Origin: a virus
Taxonomy: Duplodnaviria; Heunggongvirae; Uroviricota; Caudoviricetes
Virus record (IMG/VR): IMGVR_UViG_3300031133_000383
Location: 346,635-410,634 of that record
Strand: one strand, 5' to 3'
DNA length: 64,000 nucleotides
Below are positions 28,598-61,603 of the stretch, in pieces. Numbering within the stretch: the first letter of the stretch is position 1; the number at the start of each line of letters is the position of its first letter. The notes beneath the pieces were generated by a model that was given only the letters and a program-made list of their open reading frames with translations, had not been told where the DNA came from and made no database searches. The position numbers and the translations under genes were made by a program.

Positions 28598-28750
28598 TTT
28601 TAACTGTTGAAAAGAGATGCTGTGCTAATACCAGTGTGGCAGTAGAGGTGGTGACCTATTACTTTATTGCATGATGTTAGCAGGGTTATGAAAGTCACTA
28701 TAATAGTTAAGGGTTGGTAGTAATGCATTTTCAATCTCTCTATGCATTAT
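28598..28750 (+). ncRNA. Double-pseudoknot RNA family A, copy 1
   Basis: Homologous to 28770-28930 with compensatory stems. Confidence 0.75.
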
Positions 28751-28769: not shown

Positions 28770-28930
28770 GTTTCAATTGTCGAAAAGAGATGCAGTGGTA
28801 ACACCCAAGCGGTGATAGAATTGGTGACCTATTATTTTATCACACGATGTTGCCATTAGTCAGGAAAGTCACTATAACAATTGAGACAGCAGTAGATGTG
28901 TTGTGTGCTTTAAATCTCTTTGTACACTGC
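28770..28930 (+). ncRNA. Double-pseudoknot RNA family A, copy 2
   Basis: Homologous to 28598-28750. Confidence 0.75.
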
Positions 28931-29312: not shown

Positions 29313-29386
29313 TTCTCGTTAGTTTAACGGTAGAACAGCGGCCTCTAAAACCGTGTATGCGGGTTCGAATCCCGCACGAGGAACCA
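29313..29386 (+). tRNA. Amber tRNA (anticodon CTA)
   Basis: TTCTCGT/ACGAGGA acceptor, loop CT-CTA-AA (CTA at 29345-29347), GCGGG-TTCGAAT-CCCGC, ACCA. Confidence 0.85.
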
Positions 29387-34977: not shown

Positions 34978-35124
34978 TTTAACAGTGCAAAAAACTGTTG
35001 ACGTGTAGATGTTTTTTTGATACTATAGCTTTATTGAAACAGCGAAACAACCAGCTAAAAAGTTTTGAAAAAGATGTTGCTAAGGTTTGTGTTTTGTGTT
35101 AGAATGACAGCATGAAATGAATAC

Positions 35125-35254
35125 GGAGCCTGTCAGCGAACAGGTTGGGTGGTAGCGGTGTCGCGGGCAAGCCATCACAGTGAAAGTTACATTGATGCAG
35201 GGGTTGCATTGATTAAAACGATTGGGCGAATCGGTTTCTTTCACAACTTAATTT
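35125..35254 (+). ncRNA. Structured RNA family B, copy 1
   Basis: GGAGCC...TGATTAAAACG...AACTTAATTT; covarying hairpins vs other copies. Confidence 0.8.
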
Positions 35255-35298
35255 GATAATAGGTAGTAGTTGTTGTACTGTCTAGTTTGAAGAGATAT

Positions 35299-35428
35299 GG
35301 AGCCTGTCTACAAGCAGGTTGGGTGGTAGCGGTGTCGCGGGCGAACCATCGACGTGAAAGATTCATTGATGCGGGGAAGGCATTGATTAAAACGGTTAGG
35401 TGGACCGGCTTCTTTCACAACCTAATTT
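35299..35428 (+). ncRNA. Structured RNA family B, copy 2
   Basis: Tandem homolog ending 2 nt before tRNA-Cys. Confidence 0.8.
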
Positions 35429-35430
35429 AT

Positions 35431-35504
35431 GGCTGCTTGGCAGAATGGTCATGCACCGGATTGCAAATCCGAGTATGGGGGTTCGATTCCCTCAGCAGCC
35501 TCCA
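35431..35504 (+). tRNA. tRNA-Cys(GCA)
   Basis: GGCTGCT/AGCAGCC, TT-GCA-AA, U73, CCA. Confidence 0.95.
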
Positions 35505-35647
35505 ACACAAAAGACTTCTTCGGAAGTCTTTTTTTTATTTCAATATATACACAGTATGAATACATATAATTTAATAAATGTTCATTTGTAATTGTATATT
35601 GTCATTCTCATGATTCTTTGCTATAATAGCCTTAGCTTATCAATGGT

Positions 35648-36178
35648 TTGAGGGATTCCATGGACTTTACAAATATCGACAAAATTGATCATCAGTTCAT
35701 TCAGGCCCATGAACTTAAATCTGCCGATCTTCTAAAATACCTTTTTGGAGAGCTTACAGAAATTTCTCTCTATTATCCTGATTTTTATGCATGGCTGACC
35801 AACACAGTTATGCCCGGTTTGATTTCAGGAGAACGTAGCATTATTCTTGAGCATCGTCATGGCGAATTGGCAGGGGTTGCGATCTTGAAGGATAGTGTTG
35901 ATGAGCAAAAGTTATGTTGTCTGCGAGTCATTCCTAAATTTCAGGGTATAGGCATTGGCTTGAAACTGTTTGAGAGATCTTTTAATGAGCTTGACACTGA
36001 TAAACCTCTTTTATCTATTGCAGAGGAAAACACTCATAAATTTAAAAAGATTTTAGCTTATTATGGATTTCAACTGGAAGAAGAGTATTCTGATCTTTAT
36101 CGCCTGAATAAGACTGAATTTAGTTTCAATGGCGTCTTGCTTGTTCCTAAAGAAAAAAAATGGAATATTGATCAATGA
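35648..36178 (+). CDS. GNAT acetyltransferase
   Basis: KLCCLRVIPKFQGIGIGLKL. Confidence 0.85.
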   Translation: MRDSMDFTNIDKIDHQFIQAHELKSADLLKYLFGELTEISLYYPDFYAWLTNTVMPGLISGERSIILEHRHGELAGVAILKDSVDEQKLCCLRVIPKFQGIGIGLKLFERSFNELDTDKPLLSIAEENTHKFKKILAYYGFQLEEEYSDLYRLNKTEFSFNGVLLVPKEKKWNIDQ

Positions 36179-36236
36179 CTTGCTTAATTCGTGGTTTTTT
36201 GATAATATAAGACTATCACTACAGAAGGTAATCAGA

Positions 36237-36416
36237 ATGAACAGTCTCTTTAAGCTTTCTCATAACAAACAATTCAAAACTGCGATGAATAAAACTTTTG
36301 AACAGTTTCAAAATATGACAACTGAAGAATTTTTTGCATTAGCTAGGAAACATTCTCCTGATTCTTCTTCAAGAGATGCGTCATCAATTTCAAAATCAGA
36401 CATAGTTATTCAATAA
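36237..36416 (+). CDS. Small hypothetical protein
   Basis: AAGGT RBS before MNSLFK. Confidence 0.55.
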   Translation: MNSLFKLSHNKQFKTAMNKTFEQFQNMTTEEFFALARKHSPDSSSRDASSISKSDIVIQ

Positions 36417-36781
36417 TTGCACTTTCTTTTTTTTGTCAATTGATGGCTCCAATCAATCAACTCAGCTATTTCTTGCTTAGGAAAATCGTAATCCAATAAC
36501 ACTGTAATCCAGTGTTTTTTATTCATATGATACGCAGGCAATATATAAGGCTGAATTCTTAATATGCTATTGAATTCAGGATTGCCCTTTAGATTGATAA
36601 TATCTACATCACCTTCTTCATTTATTCCTAATTTTCGCTTTTCTATTGTCATTATTAAACCATACCATTTTCCGTCACTATTTCTTAAGACGGCACAAGA
36701 AGGATGTTTCAAAAATAAATATTCAGGTTCTGTATTGTATTTTTCTTTTACATATTTAAAAATTTCTTGTCTGCTTATCAT
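36410..36781 (-). CDS. MmcQ/YjbR family DNA-binding protein
   Basis: YVKEKY..PEYLF, KWYG, NLK..P, PAYHMNKKHWITV. Confidence 0.9.
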   Translation of the reverse strand: MISRQEIFKYVKEKYNTEPEYLFLKHPSCAVLRNSDGKWYGLIMTIEKRKLGINEEGDVDIINLKGNPEFNSILRIQPYILPAYHMNKKHWITVLLDYDFPKQEIAELIDWSHQLTKKRKCNY

Positions 36782-37291
36782 TAAACACCCCTTGTCAATT
36801 AAATAATTTTTTCTTTTCCTGTTGCACGTTACTCTATATTTGCCCATTGTCTGTACAATTATTGAATTGGACAAAATACTCATTTAGTAGAAGACTATCA
36901 TTATTATCTGATAATTCAACACACTCTTAAACATATGAAACTATGTATTTTAGATTACCATTTTTTAATGATAATAAAATTATTGAAATTTGAAAGACAA
37001 TATTCAAGCATAGTATTTCAAAATATATCTTTACACCCAAGCTTATTTTTGCTATAATATGCTTCAAGCTAAACCTTATGAGATATTATTTTATGTTTTA
37101 CCAAAATCGTTATCTTCAAAATTTTTCGTAAGATGAAAAAGTTTTTTTGACTTTATTGATTGATTTTTAGAATCTTTTAATGGTGAGATTATGTCGGTTC
37201 ACTTGAGCAATGTCGAAAAACACAGATTTACACAGCCTTAGCAGAAATTGACTTCAAAATAATTAATCATCAACTTAAATAAAGGTAGCTT

Positions 37292-37627
37292 ATGAATATT
37301 TCCAAAGAATTTATTGACAATCTTAATGTACTCAAAAATGAGAAAACTTCAACAGAAGAAATGATTTTTGATCTGGCTATCAAATATACAGATATTAGTT
37401 CGCAAATCAATAAAAGCACTACTCAAAAACCTTATCTTGAATATTTCAAGATGCATAAAGATTTTATAAATTTCATGAATTCAGCTATTGAAAAAATTGA
37501 TAGCTCACAGTCTAAATTAACTTGTATCAAAATTAAATTGTCAATTGTTGAAATTCATGACAGTATTAAAAAAGAATATCATCGAAAAAATAATTTTATC
37601 CAAAATCTTGCTCTTCGATTTCTCTAA
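37292..37627 (+). CDS. Hypothetical protein
   Basis: AAGGT RBS. Confidence 0.7.
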   Translation: MNISKEFIDNLNVLKNEKTSTEEMIFDLAIKYTDISSQINKSTTQKPYLEYFKMHKDFINFMNSAIEKIDSSQSKLTCIKIKLSIVEIHDSIKKEYHRKNNFIQNLALRFL

Positions 37628-37908
37628 TACTTTCAATTGATGTAGATATCTTAATCGATAACTCTGTTATTTATAGCGGAGTTGTTTACAGACAGTACAT
37701 TGCAATAACTTTATAATTAGCCAGTAGACTTTCTCTTTTCGCTTCAATTCCTAGTTCTTCAAATTCCTTTTCATTTTGAATAACGTTACCAGATTTCCTA
37801 TGATAATAAAACTCAGACATGACTTGATGGAATTGTACTATTATTAGCTTTTAATTATCCTTTTCGTATGGTATAATAGCTTCACTAATCACATATTGAG
37901 AAACTATC

Positions 37909-38217
37909 ATGTACACGCCTACACTTGAAGAAATCCAACGAATGGAAAAATTTGTAGAAGAAATGACATATTATTTCAAAGATACCTTTTGTCAATATTC
38001 TCGTTCTCTGGTTCGCAATGTGGTCTATATTGACTCATGGGCAGATTACGAAGAGTGTGGTGGGGTGGCTATCTATCAAGATTGGAATGGCTATTTTTAT
38101 TCCGTCGATTTTGGTCATTGTGTTATGGGTGATAACAAAATTTATACGGCCCAACAAATTACAGAAGATCAAGCGATTGAAAGCATGATCGAAATGGATG
38201 AAATGTTGGCTTCCTGA
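37909..38217 (+). CDS. Hypothetical protein
   Basis: TGGTATAAT promoter. Confidence 0.75.
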   Translation: MYTPTLEEIQRMEKFVEEMTYYFKDTFCQYSRSLVRNVVYIDSWADYEECGGVAIYQDWNGYFYSVDFGHCVMGDNKIYTAQQITEDQAIESMIEMDEMLAS

Positions 38218-38525
38218 TACACTTTTTCTTTCGGAGATTTTTTATGCTAAATTCTAAACAAGGCATTTTGACAGAATCAGGATTTTATTTCATGTTAAAA
38301 TTGAGTGTGCAATTAATGATTCTGTTGGCCATGACGAGACCCTTTCAGTGTTCATTAAATCTAATAAAGAGAATATGGTTGCCATTGTGACTCAACATAT
38401 CAATGGTCAGGTTGATCAAACCATTCTCCGGGGGAAAAATTCGTTAAAGGCACTTAAAAATTTTCTTTAAAAAAGCTTTGACATAAGTAAGAGATTTTGA
38501 TATACTTATCTCATTGAAGCAGACA

Positions 38526-38740
38526 AGGGGTTGAGCATCAAAGGCTCAATGATAATCCAGCGAGGTCGGGGCGTGGATTAGGTGCCAATGATGGCACAAG
38601 GTTGATTGAGGTTTGATGAGAGTCAAGCCTATGTAGAAATGGCGAAAGCCAGTTCAGTAGCGAGTACTTCAAAGCTATTATGGTTTTCAAGGAAAGTGGG
38701 TCACTCAGGTACTCCCAACTTACTCGCCAGCCCTGATTTA
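38526..38740 (+). ncRNA. Structured RNA family C, copy 1 (~215 nt)
   Basis: Homologous to 41718-41929 with compensatory changes; between promoter and tRNA-Pro. Confidence 0.8.
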
Positions 38741-38741
38741 A

Positions 38742-38819
38742 CGGAGTGTAGGTTAGTCTGGTTATACCGCTTGCTTTGGGAGCAAGATGTCGCAGGTTCA
38801 AATCCTGCCACTCCGACCA
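38742..38819 (+). tRNA. tRNA-Pro(TGG)
   Basis: CGGAGTG/CACTCCG, TT-TGG-GA, CCA. Confidence 0.95.
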
Positions 38820-38832
38820 ATTTTTGTTTTGT

Positions 38833-38911
38833 AGCGAAGTAGAGAAGTCTGGCTGTTCTCGCTAGCCTCATAAGCTAGAGATCGGGGGTTCAAATCCCTC
38901 CTTCGCATCCA
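38833..38911 (+). tRNA. tRNA-Met(CAT), 1:72 mismatch
   Basis: AGCGAAG/CTTCGCA, CT-CAT-AA, CCA. Confidence 0.9.
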
Positions 38912-39002
38912 ATTGAAAAGCTAACAGCAATGTTAGCTTTTTTTTATTCTCTTTTTTGACATAGCTAAATTTTCGTATAAAATTACAGCAGTCTATAAGG
39001 AA

Positions 39003-39497
39003 ATGTTGATGATCGAGAGGAAAGAAAACCTTACTTCACTTTTTAAATTACTTTTGTTCTTTTTTGGTTTTGCGATGTTAATTGTATCGCTATTGACCAG
39101 CTATAACTATTTACGACATATTCCACAAGATATAGGCGAATATACATATACAAATAATACATTATTTTTTAAATTAGAACCCAAAAAGTTATTCTTTATT
39201 ACACTGCCTGAATCCTTGACTGAATATGAACTCATTTTGCCGAAAGATGCTAAATTTAATACCAATGATAAACTTTCTATTGTATTCTTAAGAGGTGTAA
39301 AACCACCTCCAGAAGATTTAAAAGCAAATGCAATGTATATACGGTATCATGTTAAACCTATAGAAATCAATCCTATAAAAGAAATTAACCTTTTTGTTAA
39401 TGACACATTACAATATGATTTAAAAGATAAACTGGTCTTAAAGATAATTGATAAAGATCCTAAAACAGGTGAGGTTTCTATCTCTGTTTTCGAGTGA
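39003..39497 (+). CDS. Membrane-anchored hypothetical protein
   Basis: N-terminal TM. Confidence 0.75.
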   Translation: MLMIERKENLTSLFKLLLFFFGFAMLIVSLLTSYNYLRHIPQDIGEYTYTNNTLFFKLEPKKLFFITLPESLTEYELILPKDAKFNTNDKLSIVFLRGVKPPPEDLKANAMYIRYHVKPIEINPIKEINLFVNDTLQYDLKDKLVLKIIDKDPKTGEVSISVFE

Positions 39498-39585
39498 TTT
39501 CACTCTTTTTAATTATTTTTGCATTAAAGGACCTTCTATGTTATACTTAAATCCTTAATTAAAGCCTCTATTTGGAGAATATAGA

Positions 39586-39975
39586 ATGAATGAAAACCAA
39601 GAAAATGAGATAATTTCCGCAGAAGAATGTACGATTAACTTTGTATTTAAAGAAGAACGCATTCGTGGAACTAAGAAGTTTAAATGTGTAGTGGTTGCAG
39701 AAGATGCCGATGCACCTGATCAGGAGATTTCAGACCGTATTGAAGCTTCTAGTTGGGCAGTTATGAAACAAACCTATCCTACTTTAAAGGATTTGGTTGA
39801 GCATATGTTTTGGTCTGAAAACTGGCAGGTTTGTGGTCATGGGCATGATGAACGTTATCTTATTCTGACAGGATGCTCTGGTCATGAGGGTATTTATGAC
39901 TATGTAGAAGGTGATGACATTCGGGTTCTTTGGTCAGATATCAAAGAAAATGATATTGTTTACCCAAAAGAGTAG
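39586..39975 (+). CDS. Hypothetical protein
   Basis: GGAG RBS; ends TAG. Confidence 0.8.
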   Translation: MNENQENEIISAEECTINFVFKEERIRGTKKFKCVVVAEDADAPDQEISDRIEASSWAVMKQTYPTLKDLVEHMFWSENWQVCGHGHDERYLILTGCSGHEGIYDYVEGDDIRVLWSDIKENDIVYPKE

Positions 39976-40029
39976 AATTTTTTTTGTGGTTTTGATATAC
40001 TTCAACAAATCTCAAATAGGAGTCATCTA

Positions 40030-40452
40030 ATGACTGTTAGTACGCAAGAAGAAATTAATGTATTGATGGCTGAATGTTCGAAACTTGAATCTCAGTTGCG
40101 GGCGAAGCGTGAAGCCCTTGAAATGGCTGTCATAAGCAAATTGACTGCCGATGGCAAGCAGCATCCGTTGTCTTCATTTTTGGGAAAGGTTGCCACCTAT
40201 GACCGTCCTCATAAATGGCAAGACCCTAGTTCGTCTGTATTGACCGAAGATGATTTGAAGAATTACAGCTATCTCAGTTTTAATGGCATTGTAACAGGTG
40301 CTCAGGTTAACTCCTTGTATCATGAGCCTCGATATGACGATAATGACACCTTTTATAGTTTTGCCATTGCAGAAGAATGGTCAGAAATTCCGAAGGGTCA
40401 TTACATTCCGATTGAAGAAGTGTATGAGATGTTGATTTTTAAAATACAATAA
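40030..40452 (+). CDS. Hypothetical protein
   Basis: AGGAG RBS. Confidence 0.8.
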   Translation: MTVSTQEEINVLMAECSKLESQLRAKREALEMAVISKLTADGKQHPLSSFLGKVATYDRPHKWQDPSSSVLTEDDLKNYSYLSFNGIVTGAQVNSLYHEPRYDDNDTFYSFAIAEEWSEIPKGHYIPIEEVYEMLIFKIQ

Positions 40453-40644
40453 ATAGCAGATAAGAGAATATCAAATACTGCGAATTGGTTTGATGGTGTG
40501 TTCTAAATAAAAGCTGAAGAAGCTTTATCTTATCAATGTTTAATTAGTCATTTTTAAATCAATAAATAAAACTTTATGTATGTCATTTATTGATTTTTTT
40601 GTAATTTATGTTATATTCTATACAACAAATAAAGAGGATATTCT

Positions 40645-40959
40645 ATGTCTAATGTTTCCCAAGCCACTTCCAACTTCCAGCAAAAATTCAGTCCAGAAGC
40701 TGCAAAAGGACTTGATGTTGTTTTTCAATTTAATATCAGTGATGCTGATAATTTTTACCTTGTTATAAAAGATAGTATCTGTACCCTTGTAGAAGGTGAT
40801 AATGAAGATGCAAATGTTGTCTTGGTGGCAGATTCTCAAACATTGCTAGATTTATCTGATGGTAGTCTTGATGGCATGCAAGCTTTTATGGCGGGTAAAC
40901 TTCGTATCGAAGGGGATATGATGTTGTCAATGAAACTTCATGAACTTTTCCCTGTTTAA
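40645..40959 (+). CDS. SCP2 sterol/lipid-binding domain protein
   Basis: F.PEAAKGLDVVFQF...LDGMQAFMAGKLRIEGDMML. Confidence 0.9.
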   Translation: MSNVSQATSNFQQKFSPEAAKGLDVVFQFNISDADNFYLVIKDSICTLVEGDNEDANVVLVADSQTLLDLSDGSLDGMQAFMAGKLRIEGDMMLSMKLHELFPV

Positions 40960-40973
40960 AGGAGTTTCTTGCC

Positions 40974-41501
40974 ATGTCCTTACCTTATGTTGCTCCTTTG
41001 GACAGGGTTTTCTTTTTGACAGCTACTAACGAACTTAATACTATAAAAGAGTCAAAAGATAGAATGGAGCAAATTCAGAAACGAGCTTTATATGTTTTTG
41101 ACAAGATTGCTGAAATCTATGATCGTTCTTATTCGTGGGTTACTTATGACAACTGCAATCTTGAAATTGAAGGTTCGGCAGGTAAATATGACTATGAGCG
41201 TTATCTTGAAGAATTCAAGTTTTATAGTGACCTCGATGATGCTGAATACCTTAATCGTATCATTCCTCTTTATTATAACAGTTTTCCATCTCGTTTTATT
41301 TATACTGATTTTGAAGATGAAGTCACTGCTGAACTTCAAGAATTTAAAAACAATGCTGATAAAAAACGTCAGAAATCAAAAGACAAACGTGAACGTCTTA
41401 AAAAAAGAGAGATTGAGCGAGCGAAGATCAGGCCAGACATCATCACGTCTATTACCGCTAAATTAACAGAAGAAGAACTTTCTTTTATTCTATTCAAATA
41501 A
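40974..41501 (+). CDS. Hypothetical protein with C-terminal coiled coil (AKLTEEE)
   Basis: AAGGAG RBS. Confidence 0.8.
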   Translation: MSLPYVAPLDRVFFLTATNELNTIKESKDRMEQIQKRALYVFDKIAEIYDRSYSWVTYDNCNLEIEGSAGKYDYERYLEEFKFYSDLDDAEYLNRIIPLYYNSFPSRFIYTDFEDEVTAELQEFKNNADKKRQKSKDKRERLKKREIERAKIRPDIITSITAKLTEEELSFILFK

Positions 41502-41717
41502 TTTGCAAAAAAAATTAAGAAAGAGTTGCAGTCTATCGTTTTTTGTTGTAGAATAGCCTCATTGAAAAGAAGACATCTGCAAGCGGCTTGAACCGTTGGA
41601 AGAAAGAGGAAAGGCTAACCATCCTACTTGCATGTTTATGATATAATTTTCAAAATTCTAAAAAAACGTTTGACATCTGAAATGAGTTTTGATATAGTTA
41701 TCTCATTGAAACAAATA

Positions 41718-41929
41718 AGGGATTGAGTGTTTAAGGCTCAATGTTAATTCAGTGTGGTCGGGGCGTGAATTAAGTGCTAGTGGCACATGGTTAATTGAAG
41801 CTTGATAAAATCAAGCTTATGTAGAAATGGCGAAAGCCAGTTCAGTAGCGAGTCCTTTAAAGCCCGTTTTGGTTTTCAAGGAAAGTGGGTCACTCAGGCA
41901 ATCCCATCTTACTCGTCAGTCCTGATTTA
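41718..41929 (+). ncRNA. Structured RNA family C, copy 2
   Basis: Homologous to 38526-38740; between promoter and tRNA-Asn. Confidence 0.8.
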
Positions 41930-41931
41930 AT

Positions 41932-42007
41932 TGGTAAATAGCTCAGTCGGTAGAGCAGGTGACTGTTAATCACCGGGTCGTAGGTTCGAGTCCTACTTTA
42001 CCAGCCA
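41932..42007 (+). tRNA. tRNA-Asn(GTT)
   Basis: TGGTAAA/TTTACCA, CT-GTT-AA, G73, CCA. Confidence 0.95.
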
Positions 42008-42034
42008 TATTTTATAGATACAAGAGATTAGATA

Positions 42035-42247
42035 ATGAGCAGATCGGTCAGAGGTTCTAAGGGTAGTGGTTACGACTACTGGGGCAAACGTGCAAAGAGT
42101 TGTTGTTCACCCGGTCGTGTCAATAAGAAGTTGACGTTGGGTATTGAAAGAATGCGTGAACATCAACTGGTATCGTATGAACTTGATCTTGTTGCTGATG
42201 TTCATAACCACTTTGAACACGAAGTTCAAGTACTTAAAGTTTTGTAA
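42035..42247 (+). CDS. Small basic protein inside tRNA operon (MSRSVRGSKGSGYDYW)
   Basis: ORF between tRNA-Asn and tRNA-Met. Confidence 0.7.
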   Translation: MSRSVRGSKGSGYDYWGKRAKSCCSPGRVNKKLTLGIERMREHQLVSYELDLVADVHNHFEHEVQVLKVL

Positions 42248-42262
42248 TTTAAAATGTTTTGA

Positions 42263-42339
42263 AGCGGGGTAGAGAAGCCCGGTAACTCACCAGTCTCATA
42301 AGCTGGAGATCGCAGGTTCAAATCCTGCCCCCGCAACCA
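42263..42339 (+). tRNA. tRNA-Met(CAT), initiator-like acceptor
   Basis: AGCGGGG/CCCCGCA with 1:72 mismatch, CT-CAT-AA, ACCA. Confidence 0.9.
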
Positions 42340-42438
42340 CTTCGGACACCTAGCGTGTCCACCTGTGAAGAACAACACAGAGGCGATTTAGCCTGAATCA
42401 AACGACTGTGAGTAAACACAGTTTTTAAAAATCATTAT

Positions 42439-42514
<76 letters not shown>

Positions 42515-42527
42515 GATTTGTAGTTTT

Positions 42528-42603
42528 GTCCTTTGTAGCTCAGATGGTAGAGCGGGCGTTAGAAGACGCCGCGTCATAGGTTCGATTCCTATCGGGGACA
42601 CCA
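42528..42603 (+). ncRNA. tRNA-like RNA with 6-nt anticodon loop (TAGAAG), bulged acceptor stem, encoded CCA
   Basis: GTCCTTTG/CGGGGAC, GGCGT-TAGAAG-ACGCC, ATAGG-TTCGATT-CCTAT, ACCA. Confidence 0.75.
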
Positions 42604-42609
42604 TTTAGA

Positions 42610-42637
42610 AACCATGCTTCGGCATGGTTTTTTGCTT
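42610..42637 (+). terminator. Intrinsic terminator, identical to 44212-44239
   Basis: AACCATGC-TTCG-GCATGGTTTTTT. Confidence 0.85.
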
Positions 42638-42709
42638 TAGCTTTAAAGTAACTTTACATGTCTTGATGATTTTAATATAATGTAATCCGTTTGTTAATGA
42701 GGCTATTTT

Positions 42710-43042
42710 ATGAAAACAACACTTCCTGCTGTTCTGTTTATTATTGGTTTGGTTGGTCTTACTGGCACGAGTCCTTCTAAGGCTGCTGTTGTTGAAGATC
42801 GTGTTGAACGATTTTCAGCGTTTTGTGTGACGTATGATCGTGCTGTTATCAATGAAGATTCGGTAACAGATATTAAGCGTGAGCCAGATGGTTACATCAC
42901 CATGACAACGGAAGATAATCTTAAAATTATTACTGGTGGTGTTTGTACATTTAAGCAGCTTAAACCCAGTAAAAAAGTGACGGTGATTGAAGATAACGAA
43001 TTCCCAGAAGATGGTGAACCACTTTATTCTATTGGTCATTAA
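42710..43042 (+). CDS. Secreted hypothetical protein
   Basis: Signal-peptide-like N-terminus. Confidence 0.75.
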   Translation: MKTTLPAVLFIIGLVGLTGTSPSKAAVVEDRVERFSAFCVTYDRAVINEDSVTDIKREPDGYITMTTEDNLKIITGGVCTFKQLKPSKKVTVIEDNEFPEDGEPLYSIGH

Positions 43043-43088
43043 GGAATATTAATTTTCACCCTCTCTCACTTTCAATTAAGGAATTCGC

Positions 43089-44189
43089 ATGATTATTAAT
43101 TATCCCGTATTAATTAAAGCTATTTATGACAAGTGCCAAGAAGCCATTGCTTCTGGTGAAGACTGGAAATTTATGGAAAATAAGACTACCTTTGCTGTCT
43201 TTAAAAGTCATTTGCAAGAAGCTTTTAATGCGACCTTGATTGATTTTGGTGGTCATAACCATAACAACATGGCTGGTGACCCGCTGTCGGTTGTTGAACA
43301 AGAAGAACCTTGCATGTATGAGAAGATCAAAGAGCGAACAACACAAGCTTTGAAATATTTTGTGCGAGATATTTATAAAGCTATCAAAGAAAATCAGCCG
43401 TATGAAGATATTGAAAAATCCGTTCTTTTAAAACCCAGCTATTTTTATACGATGGCTATGTTGATTCAAGGCTCACCGGGCACTTATTGTTTTGTGTGCG
43501 GTAAAACCAATGGTCTTTATATGAAGGAAGGTGTTATTTCGCCGGGTTGTTTCATTGATCAGAATAGTCCATTGTGGGAACTGCTCCATGATGATTACAA
43601 AATCATGTTGCGTGGCGAAGAAGCTTCAGAAGATAAACTTTGTGCATATCCCGATGGCATTGAAAAATTTGAGCAATTCATGACCATTAAATCCGATTAC
43701 TTGGTGTTTGCGAATGACTTGCGGAGTGATGTTAAAGTTGACCCCATCGAATCACTTAAATACAGCACAGAGCGTTCTGGTTATTACAACACTATCAACT
43801 CTGATTTGGGTGCTATGTATGACCAAGAATACGCACTAAGCCTTGGCTTGCTCAAAGTGCAAACAGGCAATTCGTCTCCTGTTGTTGCTTACAATGCAAA
43901 AACTGGTGTTATCTTGGCCGCTGATCAACATGCTTGGAAACAAAAGAAACAATATCAGTTCCCACTGGATGTTGAAGGATTTAAAGCTAAATGCACGATT
44001 TGCACCGATGTTTGGACTGTTCAGGCAGTCGATAGCATTATTTACGAAGACTGTGCAAAAGAACAAGGTATTACGCTGAAAGAAGCTGCAGCACAAAATG
44101 GTGATATTATTCCAGTGACACCGGGAAAATATAAAATCACCACGTATACGGCTCCACCTGTCTTTTTCACTATTGAAAAAGTGGATTAA
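43089..44189 (+). CDS. Hypothetical phage protein (CxxC; FANDLR, GNSSP, CTDVW motifs)
   Basis: 366-aa ORF, AAGGA RBS. Confidence 0.85.
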   Translation: MIINYPVLIKAIYDKCQEAIASGEDWKFMENKTTFAVFKSHLQEAFNATLIDFGGHNHNNMAGDPLSVVEQEEPCMYEKIKERTTQALKYFVRDIYKAIKENQPYEDIEKSVLLKPSYFYTMAMLIQGSPGTYCFVCGKTNGLYMKEGVISPGCFIDQNSPLWELLHDDYKIMLRGEEASEDKLCAYPDGIEKFEQFMTIKSDYLVFANDLRSDVKVDPIESLKYSTERSGYYNTINSDLGAMYDQEYALSLGLLKVQTGNSSPVVAYNAKTGVILAADQHAWKQKKQYQFPLDVEGFKAKCTICTDVWTVQAVDSIIYEDCAKEQGITLKEAAAQNGDIIPVTPGKYKITTYTAPPVFFTIEKVD

Positions 44190-44211
44190 GTCGTCATTTG
44201 ATTGTAAACAT

Positions 44212-44239
44212 AACCATGCTTCGGCATGGTTTTTTGCTT
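44212..44239 (+). terminator. Intrinsic terminator
   Basis: Identical to 42610-42637. Confidence 0.85.
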
Positions 44240-44364
44240 CAGGTTCAGATTAATTTTACTAGAAATCGAATTCATAGACTTCATTTTTTCCATAAAATAT
44301 TAAATTAAATTGCATTTTTATCATTTCTTGATATAATGCAGTATCTTATTAAAGGTAAATAGCT

Positions 44365-45267
44365 ATGACTATCTCAGAATTACGTTTCACTGGATTCAAA
44401 GACTCAAATGGTCTAGATATACATGAAGGTGACTATCTAATTCTCAAACTCAGTGATCTTTCCAAAGATGAAATTAAACAACGTACGTTAAATATCATGA
44501 TGGACGCTTATGATATTCAATACATGCAAGCTTACATCAAACCTACTGGTCAACTTCGTTATGACCTTGACGTTATTTATGTTAATGGCAACAATCGGGC
44601 GTTAACTTCTGTAGAATATGCTTTTATTTATGAACAGCATGATATGAGCAAGGAAGAATTTTGGTTGGAATTTGCAAAAAACTCAAAACTTGACGAAATT
44701 GAAACATGTCCAAGCTTCCGTTATTTTTCTATGTTGAAAGGTATTGTTCAAACTCAGTTGTGGTCAAAATCACAACCGCTGGTTAATCGCGACCACGTTA
44801 AAGCGATGGATTTGCAATTGGTTGACAATCAACAAAATCCAATCACTCAGGGTCAACATTTTATGTTTACTGTCCCTGATGATGTTTTCAATGCTGCCCA
44901 TGACACTTTCTATGGTGGTAATCTTGGGCAGAACATGAGACAAATCGCCTGCCGCCATTATTTGTTTTATGTTATTCCTACTGAATTTTTGGCAGTGCGT
45001 TTGATGACGTGTTTTCTTAAAGATGACATGACACCTTTTACCATTGCAGAAGATGAAAAAATTTCTGGTCATGATGCTGAATATTTTAATCATGATGGTG
45101 TTGATCTCAATACTGTTGATAAACAGGAAGTATCCTTGTCTTATGCAGAAGACGCATTTACGTTTGTTCGTTATCTGATGAGTAAGGGCTGGTTGTCTCA
45201 TGAACCTAATCCAGCGATTGATTTGTCCAAATTTAAAGTTGGCTACAAACACTTTATCTCAGCCTGA
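44365..45267 (+). CDS. Protein with YopX-like N-terminal motif, possibly internally duplicated
   Basis: FTGFKDSNGLDIHEGD; second LVDNQQNPITQGQ unit. Confidence 0.65.
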   Translation: MTISELRFTGFKDSNGLDIHEGDYLILKLSDLSKDEIKQRTLNIMMDAYDIQYMQAYIKPTGQLRYDLDVIYVNGNNRALTSVEYAFIYEQHDMSKEEFWLEFAKNSKLDEIETCPSFRYFSMLKGIVQTQLWSKSQPLVNRDHVKAMDLQLVDNQQNPITQGQHFMFTVPDDVFNAAHDTFYGGNLGQNMRQIACRHYLFYVIPTEFLAVRLMTCFLKDDMTPFTIAEDEKISGHDAEYFNHDGVDLNTVDKQEVSLSYAEDAFTFVRYLMSKGWLSHEPNPAIDLSKFKVGYKHFISA

Positions 45268-45314
45268 TATAACCCGTTGATGCTCAATATAAAAAAGCCC
45301 TTTAAGGGATTTTT

Positions 45315-45779
45315 TTATATCTTCCTCTTTTTGATATTTTTTTTCTCAATCGCCTCTTGGGCTTTCACATATTCTTTTAATTCAATTGCTGTTTCGCTCG
45401 GATATGTCATAAAATACCCAGCAGATGTATTAACCAATTTTTCAAATCCTGCATTTTCATAGAATTTGTTTAGCACAAAATTTCGCACTTGATTTTCGTG
45501 TTTATCTGAAATCAACATAGCAAACTGAGAACCTGATATAGCATCTTCTAACAATCCTTTTCCAATTCCTTGTCCTCTATATTCTCGTTCTACATTTAAA
45601 TTTTTAATAACCGTTATTGACTGATATCCTTTGGCTTCAATGAAGTTTATGATGTGTTTCCTTTTAATATGATCGGCAATATTTTCCTCTAAAAAATTCT
45701 TGTAATTATCTTCGTCAACACTAACTGTGTAGCCCGATATACTTCCGCCATCTTCCTCTGATTCTATTACTTCGTACAT
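45315..45779 (-). CDS. GNAT acetyltransferase
   Basis: LNVEREYRGQGIGKGLL, KFYENAGF. Confidence 0.85.
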   Translation of the reverse strand: MYEVIESEEDGGSISGYTVSVDEDNYKNFLEENIADHIKRKHIINFIEAKGYQSITVIKNLNVEREYRGQGIGKGLLEDAISGSQFAMLISDKHENQVRNFVLNKFYENAGFEKLVNTSAGYFMTYPSETAIELKEYVKAQEAIEKKNIKKRKI

Positions 45780-46131
45780 TTGACATCCTCATAATTACCT
45801 GCCGTTTATATTATTATACATTTTTACCATGCTTTTACAATTTTGATTTTACAAAAAATTGTAGTTTCTGTCAAAAGCACGGATATTTTAAAGGTATCTA
45901 GATAATGAGTATTAAACAATTATTTGAAAATAATCCAGCACTGGAGAAAGCTTATGCTTTTGTTTAAAGCTACAAAGAAGCTGATTGACATCCGCTCATA
46001 GATTAATCAAGGGGCGTTCTTTTTACTAAGCTTTGGTAATCTTTTAAAAAAGATTGAATGTTGACTTCTTTTTTGCTATAATATCCTTATTGAAAAGCAG
46101 TATCTATTCTTATTAAATAAAGGTTTCGCTT

Positions 46132-46359
46132 ATGTGCAGCAGAACTGACGCTGATGGTTTTCTTCCTTGTCCTTTTTGTGGTGGCACTGTTATCCATATG
46201 GAAACGTGGAGCCTCCAACGAGGTGAATGGCAAGGAAAAGTAACTAATGAATGTTGTGGCTATACGTTTATTGTCTTGAATGTGTATGGTTCTACCAAGA
46301 AAGAAGTTATCGAGTTCTACAAAAAAAAGTGGAACAAAAGGCCAGAAAAAGCTTGCTAA
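46132..46359 (+). CDS. Lar-like (restriction alleviation) zinc protein
   Basis: LPCPFCGG ... C-terminal KWNKR. Confidence 0.65.
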   Translation: MCSRTDADGFLPCPFCGGTVIHMETWSLQRGEWQGKVTNECCGYTFIVLNVYGSTKKEVIEFYKKKWNKRPEKAC

Positions 46360-46414
46360 GTGGTTTGAAATTTGATAAAATAGCTACATTGAAACAGAGC
46401 AGTGAACAGAATTC

Positions 46415-46577
46415 GGAGCCTGCGTGAAAGTGGGTTGGGTAGCAGCGGTGTTGCGGGCGAGCTACTACGAAGAGTGAGTCAGAAGCTGTGATTCCTCTTC
46501 ATGGGAATGGAGAATTGAAGTGTTGTTGGCTTTGATTAAAACGGCTGGGTGAGTCGGCTCCTTCCCAAACCTAATTT
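46415..46577 (+). ncRNA. Structured RNA family B, copy 3 (expanded central insert)
   Basis: GGAGCC...TGATTAAAACG...AACCTAATTT; own promoter. Confidence 0.75.
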
Positions 46578-46984
46578 AGTTGGAGTTGCTGGTTAATGTA
46601 TAGCTATTATACAAACGGTGACTCTTGATATGGTTAAGAGTGATGTAGTTTCCACTATACAACAGCGGGCAGAAATGGATAGTTGTCATCATACTGTACC
46701 CAATTAAAGAGCAATACCTACTGCAATAGAGACTGGGCTTTTGTAGTAGCAATTAGAATCCATCTCAGCAGATAGAGTGGAGCGATAGGCGTTATTTGAC
46801 CTTGACCTTTGAAGCGATGACATCTTGGTGGCTTGGTGGTGAAAAGTAACCACATATATTAAAGCAATCTGTTCAAAACAGGTTGCTTTTTTTTATAAAA
46901 ATCATAGTTAATTGTTAGTTTTCTTGTTTTTATTTTCTGCTTATGGTATAATCAATTTCCAATCTCTTACTAGGATTACTTATT

Positions 46985-61048: not shown

Positions 61049-61603
61049 AATACTTGAAATGATTTCTTTTTATGCTATAATTACTCATACATAAATTGAA
61101 GGCATCATGACAATGATTGTGTTGCCTAATGAGTGGAATCCATAGGAATATCAGTTTTAGCAGACCGTTTCTGTCCTATGGTTAAAAAATGGAATGTTGT
61201 TGTTCAAGTTTGCCTTTTTTCTTGTCCAACAGTTTACTATCTGGCACAATAATATTAGCCTTAAAAATCTGCAGTGATAGCATTGTATTTCAGGAGGCTA
61301 TCATGTTTTTTTCAGTTATCTACTTGAATCAACAAGATTAGATGCTATACTGACTGGAAAGTTTAATGCTGGTTGTTCCACCAATCAGTACCGAACGTCA
61401 GGTCTATATTAAATGGCAGAGTATCGCCGCCTGATCTCTTTTTTATGATGAAAGGCATCTTGGACTTCGGTTCTGGATTAAAACGGTTGGGTGAACTGGC
61501 CTTTTATCTCATTCTTCTAACCATAAGTGTCACTACTTATGGTTTTTTTATTGCTTATTTTTTTGTTTTTTGATACACTCTCATTATCTAATTTGAGGAT
61601 ACC

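Follow-up and report, generated by a model that had tools for sequence, protein, structure and literature searches.

What are the three GC-rich segments that recur in this AT-rich phage DNA, two of them in tandem just before a tRNA gene? The window (the whole stretch of DNA analysed here, 64,000 nucleotides) belongs to a 437-kb virus record whose GC content is 30.9%. An initial annotation had proposed that it carries three copies of a structured RNA, called family B hereafter, with a GC content far above the background. A covariance model (CM) built from the three window copies matched the proposed positions to the base, and the contrast in composition proved real (GC of 0.45-0.52 for family B RNAs vs 0.309 genome-wide). 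The copies are:

35125..35254, + strand, family B copy 1, 130 nt, without Pv hairpin (CM match)
35299..35428, + strand, family B copy 2, 130 nt (CM match)
46415..46577, + strand, family B copy 3, 163 nt, with a Pv hairpin at 46468-46500 (CM match)

Copy 2, which shares 83% identity with copy 1, lies in tandem behind it, separated by 44 nt, and lacks its own promoter. Searching with the CM, as had been suggested, recovered homologues restricted to related huge-phage contigs (E 1e-19 to 1e-36) and led to a later alignment of 16 distinct full-length sequences. Each genome harbors about three full copies and one copy with the 3' domain only. Family B consists of structured non-coding RNA genes of 130-170 nt that are found in one clade of AT-rich huge phages only.

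The 38 proposed base pairs are standard in 97.0% of cells across the 16 homologues vs only 28-46% for slid partners, changes on both sides affect 26 of them, and none of 500 shuffles reached the score. RNAalifold independently found the same helices, with compensatory changes in 25 of 36 pairs; these include three helices already described as covarying, CCTGT/ACAGG (P1), GGTGGT/GCCATC (P2) and CGATT/AATCG (P5). G-U pairs are frequent in the proposed stems and, together with the promoters and terminators described below, they place the RNA on the + strand. The 5' domain is composed of a 5' GG, hairpin P1 and hairpin P2, followed by the optional hairpin Pv; in the 3' domain, P3, P4 and P5 meet in a three-way junction. 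P4 (ATTGATGC/GCATTGAT) is a stem absent from the initial annotation. In copy 1, all on the + strand, the elements lie as follows:

35127-35133/35140-35146, + strand, P1
35148-35176, + strand, P2, with its apical loop at 35157-35166
35180-35186/35238-35244, + strand, P3
35191-35198/35206-35213, + strand, P4
35211-35219, + strand, GATTAAAAC
35219-35233, + strand, P5
35245-35254, + strand, tail

The earlier interpretation as a real structured RNA, present in several copies, with covarying helices and no Rfam match, stands, except for its pseudoknots; none of the three pseudoknots tested was supported. The GTGAAAG/CTTTCAC pairing was recovered by RNAalifold, not as part of a pseudoknot but as P3, the nested closing stem of the three-way junction. 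The pairing of 5' GGAGC with GYTYC is possible in the window copies but is not maintained across the family: it is broken in four homologues (L046, L040, L013a and L017b) and clashes with P1 pairs 5-20 and 6-19 as well as with inner pairs of P3, which changed on both sides. Likewise, TTGGGT/ACYTAA can be drawn in the window copies and outscores shuffled tails in window-type copies only; it is not maintained across the family and overlaps the covarying P2. Tertiary contacts cannot be read from covariation here because the 16 sequences span only two or three sub-lineages.

Conserved positions cluster in loops and junctions, in contrast to the freely varying stems. Conservation starts in the leader, about 6 nt 5' of GGAG, and is near-total from GGAG onward. 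Both sequence blocks noticed previously, AGCGGTG-(2-3 nt)-CGGGCRAGC and GATTAA(A/C)AC, are family-wide. The G-rich apical loop of P2, GGUG(N2-3)CGG closed by GC/GC, is invariant, as are the junction strand GAUUAAAAC, the P5 loop GGGUG and the A/U-rich tail in the 3' domain. Leaders (..AAAYGAAUWC; GAATAC at the end of the copy 1 leader) and tails (AACYUAAUUU-like) are kept across paralogs and genomes. The insertion of about 33 nt ascribed to copy 3 is the hairpin at 46468-46500; Pv occurs in 14 of 16 family members, and copies 1 and 2 are therefore forms without it. The window also contains a shorter relative:

~61401..61519, + strand, 3'-domain-only derivative, core 61447-61508 (P3, P4, GATTAAAAC, P5), different 5' part

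By eye, it is preceded by a promoter (TTGAAT-16-TATACT, 61324-61351) and followed by a terminator hairpin (~61519-61549). Such short forms, with the 3' domain alone, were found in every genome searched in full (E 1e-7 to 1e-10); the sequences of P3 and P4 differ but pairing is kept. The 3' domain is a portable module that occurs alone and after a different 5' part.

The surroundings of the copies contain putative signals for their transcription:

34998..35026, + strand, upstream promoter-like site, TTGACG-17-TACTAT with TG
35077..35105, + strand, promoter-like site of copy 1, TTGCTA-17-TAGAAT with TG, about 20 nt before copy 1
35431..35504, + strand, tRNA-Cys(GCA), 2 nt after copy 2 (as annotated initially), read as co-transcribed
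35509..35540, + strand, intrinsic terminator closing the copy 1-copy 2-tRNA-Cys unit
46353..46381, + strand, promoter-like site of copy 3, TTGCTA-17-TAAAAT with TG, near-identical in the relative L046
46578..46897, + strand, stretch of about 280 nt after copy 3, read as co-transcribed with it, terminator at 46861-46897

A -35/-10 pair is found 20-33 nt upstream of every non-tandem copy. Judging from these motifs, each gene or tandem pair appears to have a sigma-70-type promoter of its own, in which the -10 is extended. The predicted units are either stand-alone (promoter, RNA, terminator) or begin a short RNA operon closed by a terminator after a tRNA or tRNA-like gene. For instance, clade-2b copies have a hairpin and a U run directly 3'. 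Neither an ORF nor a significant fold was found in the 46578-46897 stretch; in relatives, a tRNA-Ile-like gene occupies its position. This gene lies about 10 nt 3' of the family B copy in L046, and L040 has a homologous stretch without a clear ARAGORN call. The genes flanking family B copies are uninformative, showing no consistent linkage.

No Rfam family matches family B, which answers the earlier concern that it might be a known class. Family B appears to be a new RNA class without detectable relative in Rfam and the searchable literature, although it may be among the about 8,500 unnamed IMG/VR candidates of PMC10690425. This novelty concerns the RNA class and not a proven mechanism. An rRNA mimic was rejected using nhmmer against the E. 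coli rrnH operon (best E 2). Antisense pairing to rRNA was also rejected: the P2 loop forms a duplex of -21.7 kcal/mol with 16S 1401-1412 and its best one, on 23S, reaches -22.7 kcal/mol, a value equalled or exceeded by 45 of 60 shuffled loops.

In its general character, family B is akin to orphan phage RNAs encoded near tRNAs, such as ROOL, GOLLD and the T4 species 1 and species 2 RNAs (rnaC and rnaD). The latter are small (119-139 nt), stable, of unknown function, encoded within the phage tRNA cluster and co-transcribed with tRNAs. The copy 1-copy 2-tRNA-Cys-terminator unit has the same kind of location, a likeness of context and not of membership. Homology to rnaC/rnaD was rejected, the best cmsearch score (CM R1, filters off) being 4.1 bits (E 2.3) on rnaC. 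In contrast to the T4 RNAs, most family B genes have a promoter of their own; they occur as 3-4 paralogs and lack the tRNA-like T arm that ends rnaC.

What might such RNAs do? Our leading but still tentative reading is that family B RNAs are stable binding platforms acting in trans, expressed early and matured by tRNA-type processing. Host RNA polymerase would transcribe them early in infection. Considering their context and what is established about tRNA maturation, RNase P would trim their 3' side where a tRNA follows, and RNase E-type cuts would complete the processing in the flanking AU-rich sequences that are conserved (GAAUWC on the 5' side, AAUUU on the 3' side). The mature RNA would be abundant and stable and would act in trans, binding a conserved partner through a surface formed by its three invariant unpaired elements. 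This partner would most probably be a host or phage protein of the translation or tRNA-processing machinery and, for this reason, the RNA may function as a scaffold of an RNP or as a decoy. Catalysis, ligand binding or the assembly of RNA with RNA would be equally good roles for the invariant loops.

Besides translation genes, huge phages carry large arrays of tRNAs. To our knowledge, their non-coding RNA content is almost uncharted. Family B is a two-module, multi-copy RNA behind strong promoter-like sites, amid unexplained structured RNAs. Since it is well supported, multi-copy, unmatched in Rfam and located in an RNA island, it offers a testable entry point to the use of RNA by huge phages in host takeover.

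The alternative that survives best, to which we grant a limited chance, is a cis-acting processing or stabilising module. By analogy with mascRNA/MALAT1, the 3' domain would serve as a handle with the shape of a tRNA (acceptor-like P3, long P4, 5-nt variable-loop-like UAAAA, 5-bp T-arm-like P5), at which host tRNA nucleases would cut so that the attached 5' RNA or the downstream tRNA receives defined ends. The portable 3' domain is indeed found after three different upstream RNAs, and a tRNA or tRNA-like gene lies 2-10 nt after several copies. Its helix order (P3/P4/5-nt linker/5-bp P5/P3') is, in our reading of the fold, that of a tRNA without D arm, as in mascRNA-type modules and D-arm-less tRNAs. 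These also resemble family B in the adjoining tRNA genes and in the ACCA-like ends of the short forms (...GACCAAAUU), which recall the 3' ends and trailers of the phage's own tRNAs. However, the 8-bp P4 with a 7-nt loop lacking the U33 pattern differs from these modules, and the P5 loop GGGUG is no T loop. Among 21 3' domains, ARAGORN made no call with -t and one with -mt; they score nothing with the Rfam tRNA model, which matched only the true tRNA-Cys. tRNA or tRNA-like identity was rejected given these detector failures and the absent T loop. Moreover, clade-2b members are complete promoter-RNA-terminator genes with nothing to process downstream. A variant of this cis-acting explanation would be a promoter-proximal antitermination element. 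Processive antitermination RNAs such as HK022 put are promoter-proximal and structured, with conserved loops; family B shares these traits, nearly all its copies being promoter-proximal. Unlike put, it often has a terminator directly after it and no gene beyond, and the short forms are far from promoters, which speaks against put-like action.

A bolder possibility, to which we attach a small probability, is a new functional class in which the 3' module would be a tRNA-shaped entry ticket to tRNA-processing or ribosome-associated factors, the P2 loop an effector that is catalytic or captures a ligand or protein, and the whole a part of the RNA island. If so, huge phages would use family B to reprogram the host RNA or translation machinery, and the island would comprise family B, insertion-bearing tRNA genes and other structured RNAs.

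Family B might also be a new catalytic or ligand-binding RNA, whose core would be the P2 loop, the GAUUAAAAC junction and the P5 loop, but this seems improbable. Conserved loops and junctions with free stems are the typical pattern of ribozyme and aptamer cores, the conservation beginning in the leader fits, and ribozymes beside phage tRNAs are already known, HDV-like theta ribozymes being an example. However, the Rfam ribozymes and riboswitches gave no match at E up to 10, the tested pseudoknots all failed, and a promoter for each copy makes self-cleavage unnecessary for release. An HDV-like or theta ribozyme was rejected: the 5'-end pairing that this fold requires (GGAGC/GYUYC) conflicts with the covarying P1 and P3 and is broken in four lineages. 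A riboswitch architecture was rejected as well, the RNA being stand-alone or having a tRNA or terminator directly 3', with nothing downstream that resembles an expression platform or regulated gene.

We regard it as very improbable that family B forms multimers of RNA alone, as ROOL and GOLLD do, with paralogous copies that would co-assemble by loop contacts. The invariant loops common to several paralogs per genome and the same ecological setting speak for this analogy. Family B RNAs are 130-170 nt long vs roughly 580-800 nt for ROOL and GOLLD, which are larger by a factor of four to six and assemble into homo-oligomeric cages. No conserved self-complementary loop was found, the CGCG of the P2 loop being absent from clade 2b. 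ROOL and GOLLD membership was rejected on length and because their Rfam models do not match family B. Both are phage or prophage RNAs of unknown function, often near tRNA islands, and in GOLLD the 3' region is conserved and the 5' region variable (bioRxiv 10.1101/2024.12.08.627333), as in family B.

We give hardly any credit to a HEARO/omega-RNA-derived guide or scaffold for a phage RNA-guided nuclease, e.g. its TnpB-like proteins, of which the genome encodes 3-4 ORFs. One representative, the true HEARO RNA L004 (156 bits, positive control for the model), has the G-rich 22-nt string GGGTAG-N-AGCGGTGTTGCGGGC, 21/22 identical to copy 3, and GATTAAAA ahead of a hairpin whose loop is GGGU, i.e. 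the local motif helix-UAAAA-hairpin(GGGU loop)-G-helix. However, the shared letters are helix strands in HEARO vs apical loop and P2 stem in family B, the motif order is reversed, and by our rough estimate about one chance match to this pattern is expected in the collection. HEARO (RF02033, gathering threshold 83 bits) does not match family B at E up to 10. There is no IscB RuvC domain, PF14239 being absent across the whole 437-kb record, and the ORFs flanking family B are unrelated to IscB (PLMP/RuvC/HNH). The TnpB-like ORFs lie 12-37 kb beyond the window ends, at least 22 kb from the nearest family B copy, with no family B match in their vicinity, and the conserved leaders and tails leave no variable guide segment. 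HEARO membership was rejected given the lack of a model match, missing IscB and missing guide.

Finally, that family B is a coding stretch (the 35287-35559 ORF, raised in the initial annotation) or a DNA repeat (mobile-element end or protein-binding site) has a negligible probability and is contradicted already by stops, lengths and strand-specific pairing: the frame spans copies 1 and 2 but is open in these only, with 1-4 stops in every other homologue, and reads across tRNA-Cys and its terminator, the length differences between homologues are not multiples of 3, both G-U pairs and compensatory changes are specific to one strand, and no transposase or inverted-repeat ends lie near the copies.

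Other structured-RNA repeat families in the window also adjoin tRNAs, and the RNA island includes tRNA genes with odd insertions. Upstream of copy 3 lies a Lar-like protein, which we read as a host-takeover neighbourhood.

The virus genome behind the window (IMG/VR) is 437,043 bp long, 98% complete according to CheckV, and has a GC content of 30.9%; the window spans its positions 346635-410634. The three full copies of family B were recovered exactly where the initial annotation had placed them. Copies 1 and 2 form a tandem pair with 83% identity and a 44-nt spacer. A partial fourth member, restricted to the 3' domain (the P3/P4/P5 three-way junction), has a 5' part unlike that of the full copies. 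The window also encodes 13-14 tRNAs, including a CUA suppressor. The features are as follows:

29313-29386, CUA suppressor tRNA
35125-35254 (+), family B copy 1
35299-35428 (+), family B copy 2
35431-35504, tRNA-Cys, 2 nt after the end of copy 2
35509-35540, intrinsic terminator after tRNA-Cys
46353-46381, promoter-like site of copy 3
46415-46577 (+), family B copy 3
46861-46897, terminator closing the copy 3 transcript
~61401-61519, partial fourth member, 3' domain only, from the repeat scan and covariance models

The largest table-11 ORF of this 437-kb genome has only 778 aa; together with the CUA suppressor tRNA, this is consistent with ORF calls being broken up by TAG recoding.

Family B is almost certainly a genuine structured non-coding RNA family. 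RNAalifold, applied to A3 (the covariance-model alignment of homologs; 20 sequences, 16 distinct), retrieved five helices with compensatory changes in 25 of 36 pairs. On the stored structure, 26 of 38 pairs change on both sides and standard pairs occupy 97.0% of 602 cells, versus 79.6% with shuffled columns and 28-46% with partners slid by 1-3 columns; since A3 was fitted to the model, these pair counts are biased towards the structure. The observed covariation score was reached by none of 500 shuffles. Furthermore, a three-sequence MAFFT alignment gave identical helices, which are also seen in a MAFFT-only alignment of the 3' domains. From 5' to 3', the RNA is organized as follows:

Leader, ending GAAUWC, then GG
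P1, 7 bp, loop variable
P2, 6 bp with a bulged A, a GC/GC clamp and an apical loop GGUG-N2-3-CGG followed by an R-A bulge
Pv, long optional hairpin, found in 14 of the 16 members, lacking in window copies 1 and 2
P3, 7-9 bp, closing the three-way junction
P4, 8 bp, loop variable and mostly of 7 nt
Invariant strand after P4, (U)GAUUAAAAC
P5, 5 bp with loop GGGUG, then 1-3 linking nt, then P3'
3' tail, A/U-rich, AACYUAAUUU or similar

The pseudoknots proposed in the initial annotation did not hold. GTGAAAG/CTTTCAC corresponds to P3, an ordinary nested stem, and looked like a pseudoknot because the 5' GGAGC had additionally been paired with GYTYC. This latter pairing is contradicted by covarying pairs of P1 and inner P3 and is mismatched at four loci of other contigs (L046, L040, L013a and L017b). 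Within P1, position 5 covaries with 20 and position 6 with 19 (1 and 5 sequences have A-U in place of C-G), and the GYTYC nucleotides belong to inner P3 pairs that likewise covary. The TTGGGT/ACYTAA pairing overlaps the covarying P2 and is better than shuffled tails in window-type copies only. Candidate pseudoknots (P5 loop-tail, J1/2-tail and leader-tail) were equalled by a median of 34-53% of shuffled tails and lack column-wise covariation. Therefore, no pseudoknot is established. An HDV-like fold is ruled out by covariation.

Family B matches no known class of Rfam 15. Searches at gathering thresholds over the window, at E values as high as 10 for the two loci, and on 12 homolog loci gave no family B match, tRNAs being the sole matches in all of them. 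Similarly, blastn against 50,697 GenBank phage records matched tRNA-Cys alone, and a strict two-motif pattern scan of viral contigs gave no match. R1, the covariance model built from the three window copies, revealed strong homologs (E 1e-19 to 1e-25) among loci that had been located by short-motif scans. These homologs fall in two sets: five IMG/VR contigs of 64-193 kb (four rated 50-59% complete, the 64-kb one 22%) and four more metagenome contigs with five loci, two of which share one contig. Each fully searched IMG/VR record (n=5) carries two full copies and one short form (3' domain only) directly 3' of the first copy. According to tblastn of window proteins, the homolog contigs are syntenic with the window phage, mostly at 33-59% amino-acid identity (95% at L046). 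With the improved model R2, none of 14 loci from pattern scans of bacterial genome contigs belongs to the family; the P2-loop motif occurs in 93 stretches of viral contigs, and the 75 further loci among these that were scored with R2 include no family member. A terminase Pfam search for further relatives gave no match. On present evidence, family B is thus limited to one huge-phage clade.

Two dissimilar family B loci (L041 and L046) share one metagenome contig of 1.86 Mb, Ga0308158_10000001. One belongs to the distant clade-2 type, and the other is flanked by a protein with 95% identity to the neighbour of window copy 3. Either the assembly is chimeric or the element is far larger than a phage. 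IMG/VR labels four of the five related contigs 'provirus', among them the one cut from Ga0308158_10000001.

Except for the second copy of a tandem, every copy is preceded, 20-33 nt upstream of GGAG, by a -35/-10 pair that in most cases carries TG. Copies of the clade 2b sub-lineage directly precede a hairpin plus a U run and hence are complete promoter-RNA-terminator genes. The abundance of G-U pairs, the promoters and the terminators indicate that the functional strand is the + RNA. Downstream of copy 2 lies tRNA-Cys, and at two homolog loci a tRNA-Ile-like gene follows the family B element by about 10 nt:

L046:6380-6560 (-), tRNA-Ile-like gene with an 80-88-nt D-loop insertion
L040:1816-1975 (+), tRNA-Ile-like gene with an 80-88-nt D-loop insertion

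ARAGORN called the L046 gene tRNA-Ile(aat) only after in silico deletion of the 80-88-nt D-loop stretch, and its L040 calls were ambiguous. These genes may represent a novel type of interrupted tRNA gene. In the window, about 280 nt (46578-46860) share the transcript of copy 3 and contain neither an ORF nor a significant fold (z = 0.09); the acceptor end of the L046 gene can be aligned with the 3' part of this stretch, which may therefore be a decayed copy. Moreover, two promoter-driven RNAs directly upstream of family B on another contig (L013:150-330 and L013:360-545) end with a T arm, an acceptor strand and CCA. They were not called by ARAGORN and may be further insertion-bearing tRNA-like genes.

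Family B combines strong promoter-like sites, stand-alone genes and several paralogs per genome with stems that vary freely, three unpaired elements that are invariant and a portable 3' module. Its genomic setting is an RNA/tRNA island next to genes for host takeover, with a Lar-like protein upstream of copy 3. From these features, we infer a trans-acting RNA. Our tentative proposal is an early RNA whose ends would result from tRNA-type processing. It would be made early by the host polymerase and accumulate as an abundant, stable molecule acting in trans. RNase P would set its end where a tRNA adjoins, and the other ends would come from RNase E-type cleavage within the AU-rich flanks, which are conserved; both steps lean on established knowledge of tRNA maturation. 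The invariant loops would serve as binding sites for a conserved partner, and a translation or tRNA-processing protein is the likeliest candidate.

A cis-acting tRNA-shaped processing handle or antitermination element is rather unlikely. The helix order of the 3' domain is that of a tRNA without D arm, and short forms end ...GACCAAAUU, as do the tRNA ends of this phage; tRNA detectors, including ARAGORN, reject a tRNA identity for this domain. A new ribozyme or aptamer is improbable, and an RNA-only assembly like ROOL/GOLLD quite improbable. Family B is akin in kind to other orphan phage RNAs near tRNA islands and is alone in sequence and fold. Literature searches found no description of it. 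About 8,500 unnamed candidate structured RNAs from IMG/VR have been catalogued (PMC10690425), and family B is possibly among them.

An omega-RNA-like guide is highly improbable. A scan for the P2-loop string matched one contig, where the string falls inside a true HEARO RNA (156 bits) located upstream of an IscB-like ORF:

L004:3690-3894 (-), HEARO RNA with a P2-like string, a 21-of-22 match to the P2 region of copy 3

This RNA likewise has GATTAAAA, then a hairpin with a GGGU loop. However, the motif order is reversed, and the common letters form helix strands in HEARO and a stem with its apical loop in family B. The HEARO model gives no score on family B; the likeness is local only and probably coincidental. 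Unlike a guide, family B has conserved leaders and tails. The genome lacks an IscB RuvC domain and a reverse transcriptase. It encodes 3-4 TnpB-like ORFs, 12-37 kb beyond the window's ends and at least 22 kb from the nearest copy, with no family B match near them:

309993, 322902, 421407 and 432532 of the genome, outside the window, TnpB-like ORFs (PF07282 zinc-ribbon; open frames of 358-549 aa)

Finally, a coding stretch or DNA repeat can practically be dismissed: no reading frame is conserved among homologs, the 35287-35559 ORF noted initially included, frame +1 is open in copies 1 and 2 only (1-4 stops in every other homolog), and homolog lengths (130 and 157-169 nt) do not differ by multiples of 3.

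Other identities were rejected. T4 rnaC/rnaD have a similar genomic setting but not the same sequence or fold, and show no homology with family B. An rRNA mimic was discarded, with no similarity to the E. coli rrn operon (best E = 2), as was an rRNA antisense: 45 of 60 shuffled P2 loops gave an rRNA duplex at least as good as the loop's best, -22.7 kcal/mol on 23S. Complementarity of the P2 loop to 16S 1401-1412, at -21.7 kcal/mol, is thus unremarkable. An antisense guide was rejected too: in the phage genome, only chance 8-10-mers match this loop, the best within an ORF. Its pairing with neighbouring tRNA or tRNA-like RNAs, including GCCGCGAC of the D-loop insertion, was no better than with shuffles. 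Comparisons of neighbour proteins with Pfam and PHROGs were uninformative.

Repeated, non-coding and GC-richer stretches also adjoin other tRNA genes of the window. Those at 38469-38741 and 41661-41930 precede tRNA-Pro and tRNA-Asn, and those at 28598-28678 and 28771-28851 follow tRNA-Leu. The repeat scan labels these two tRNA-adjacent families D5/D11/D16 and D9.
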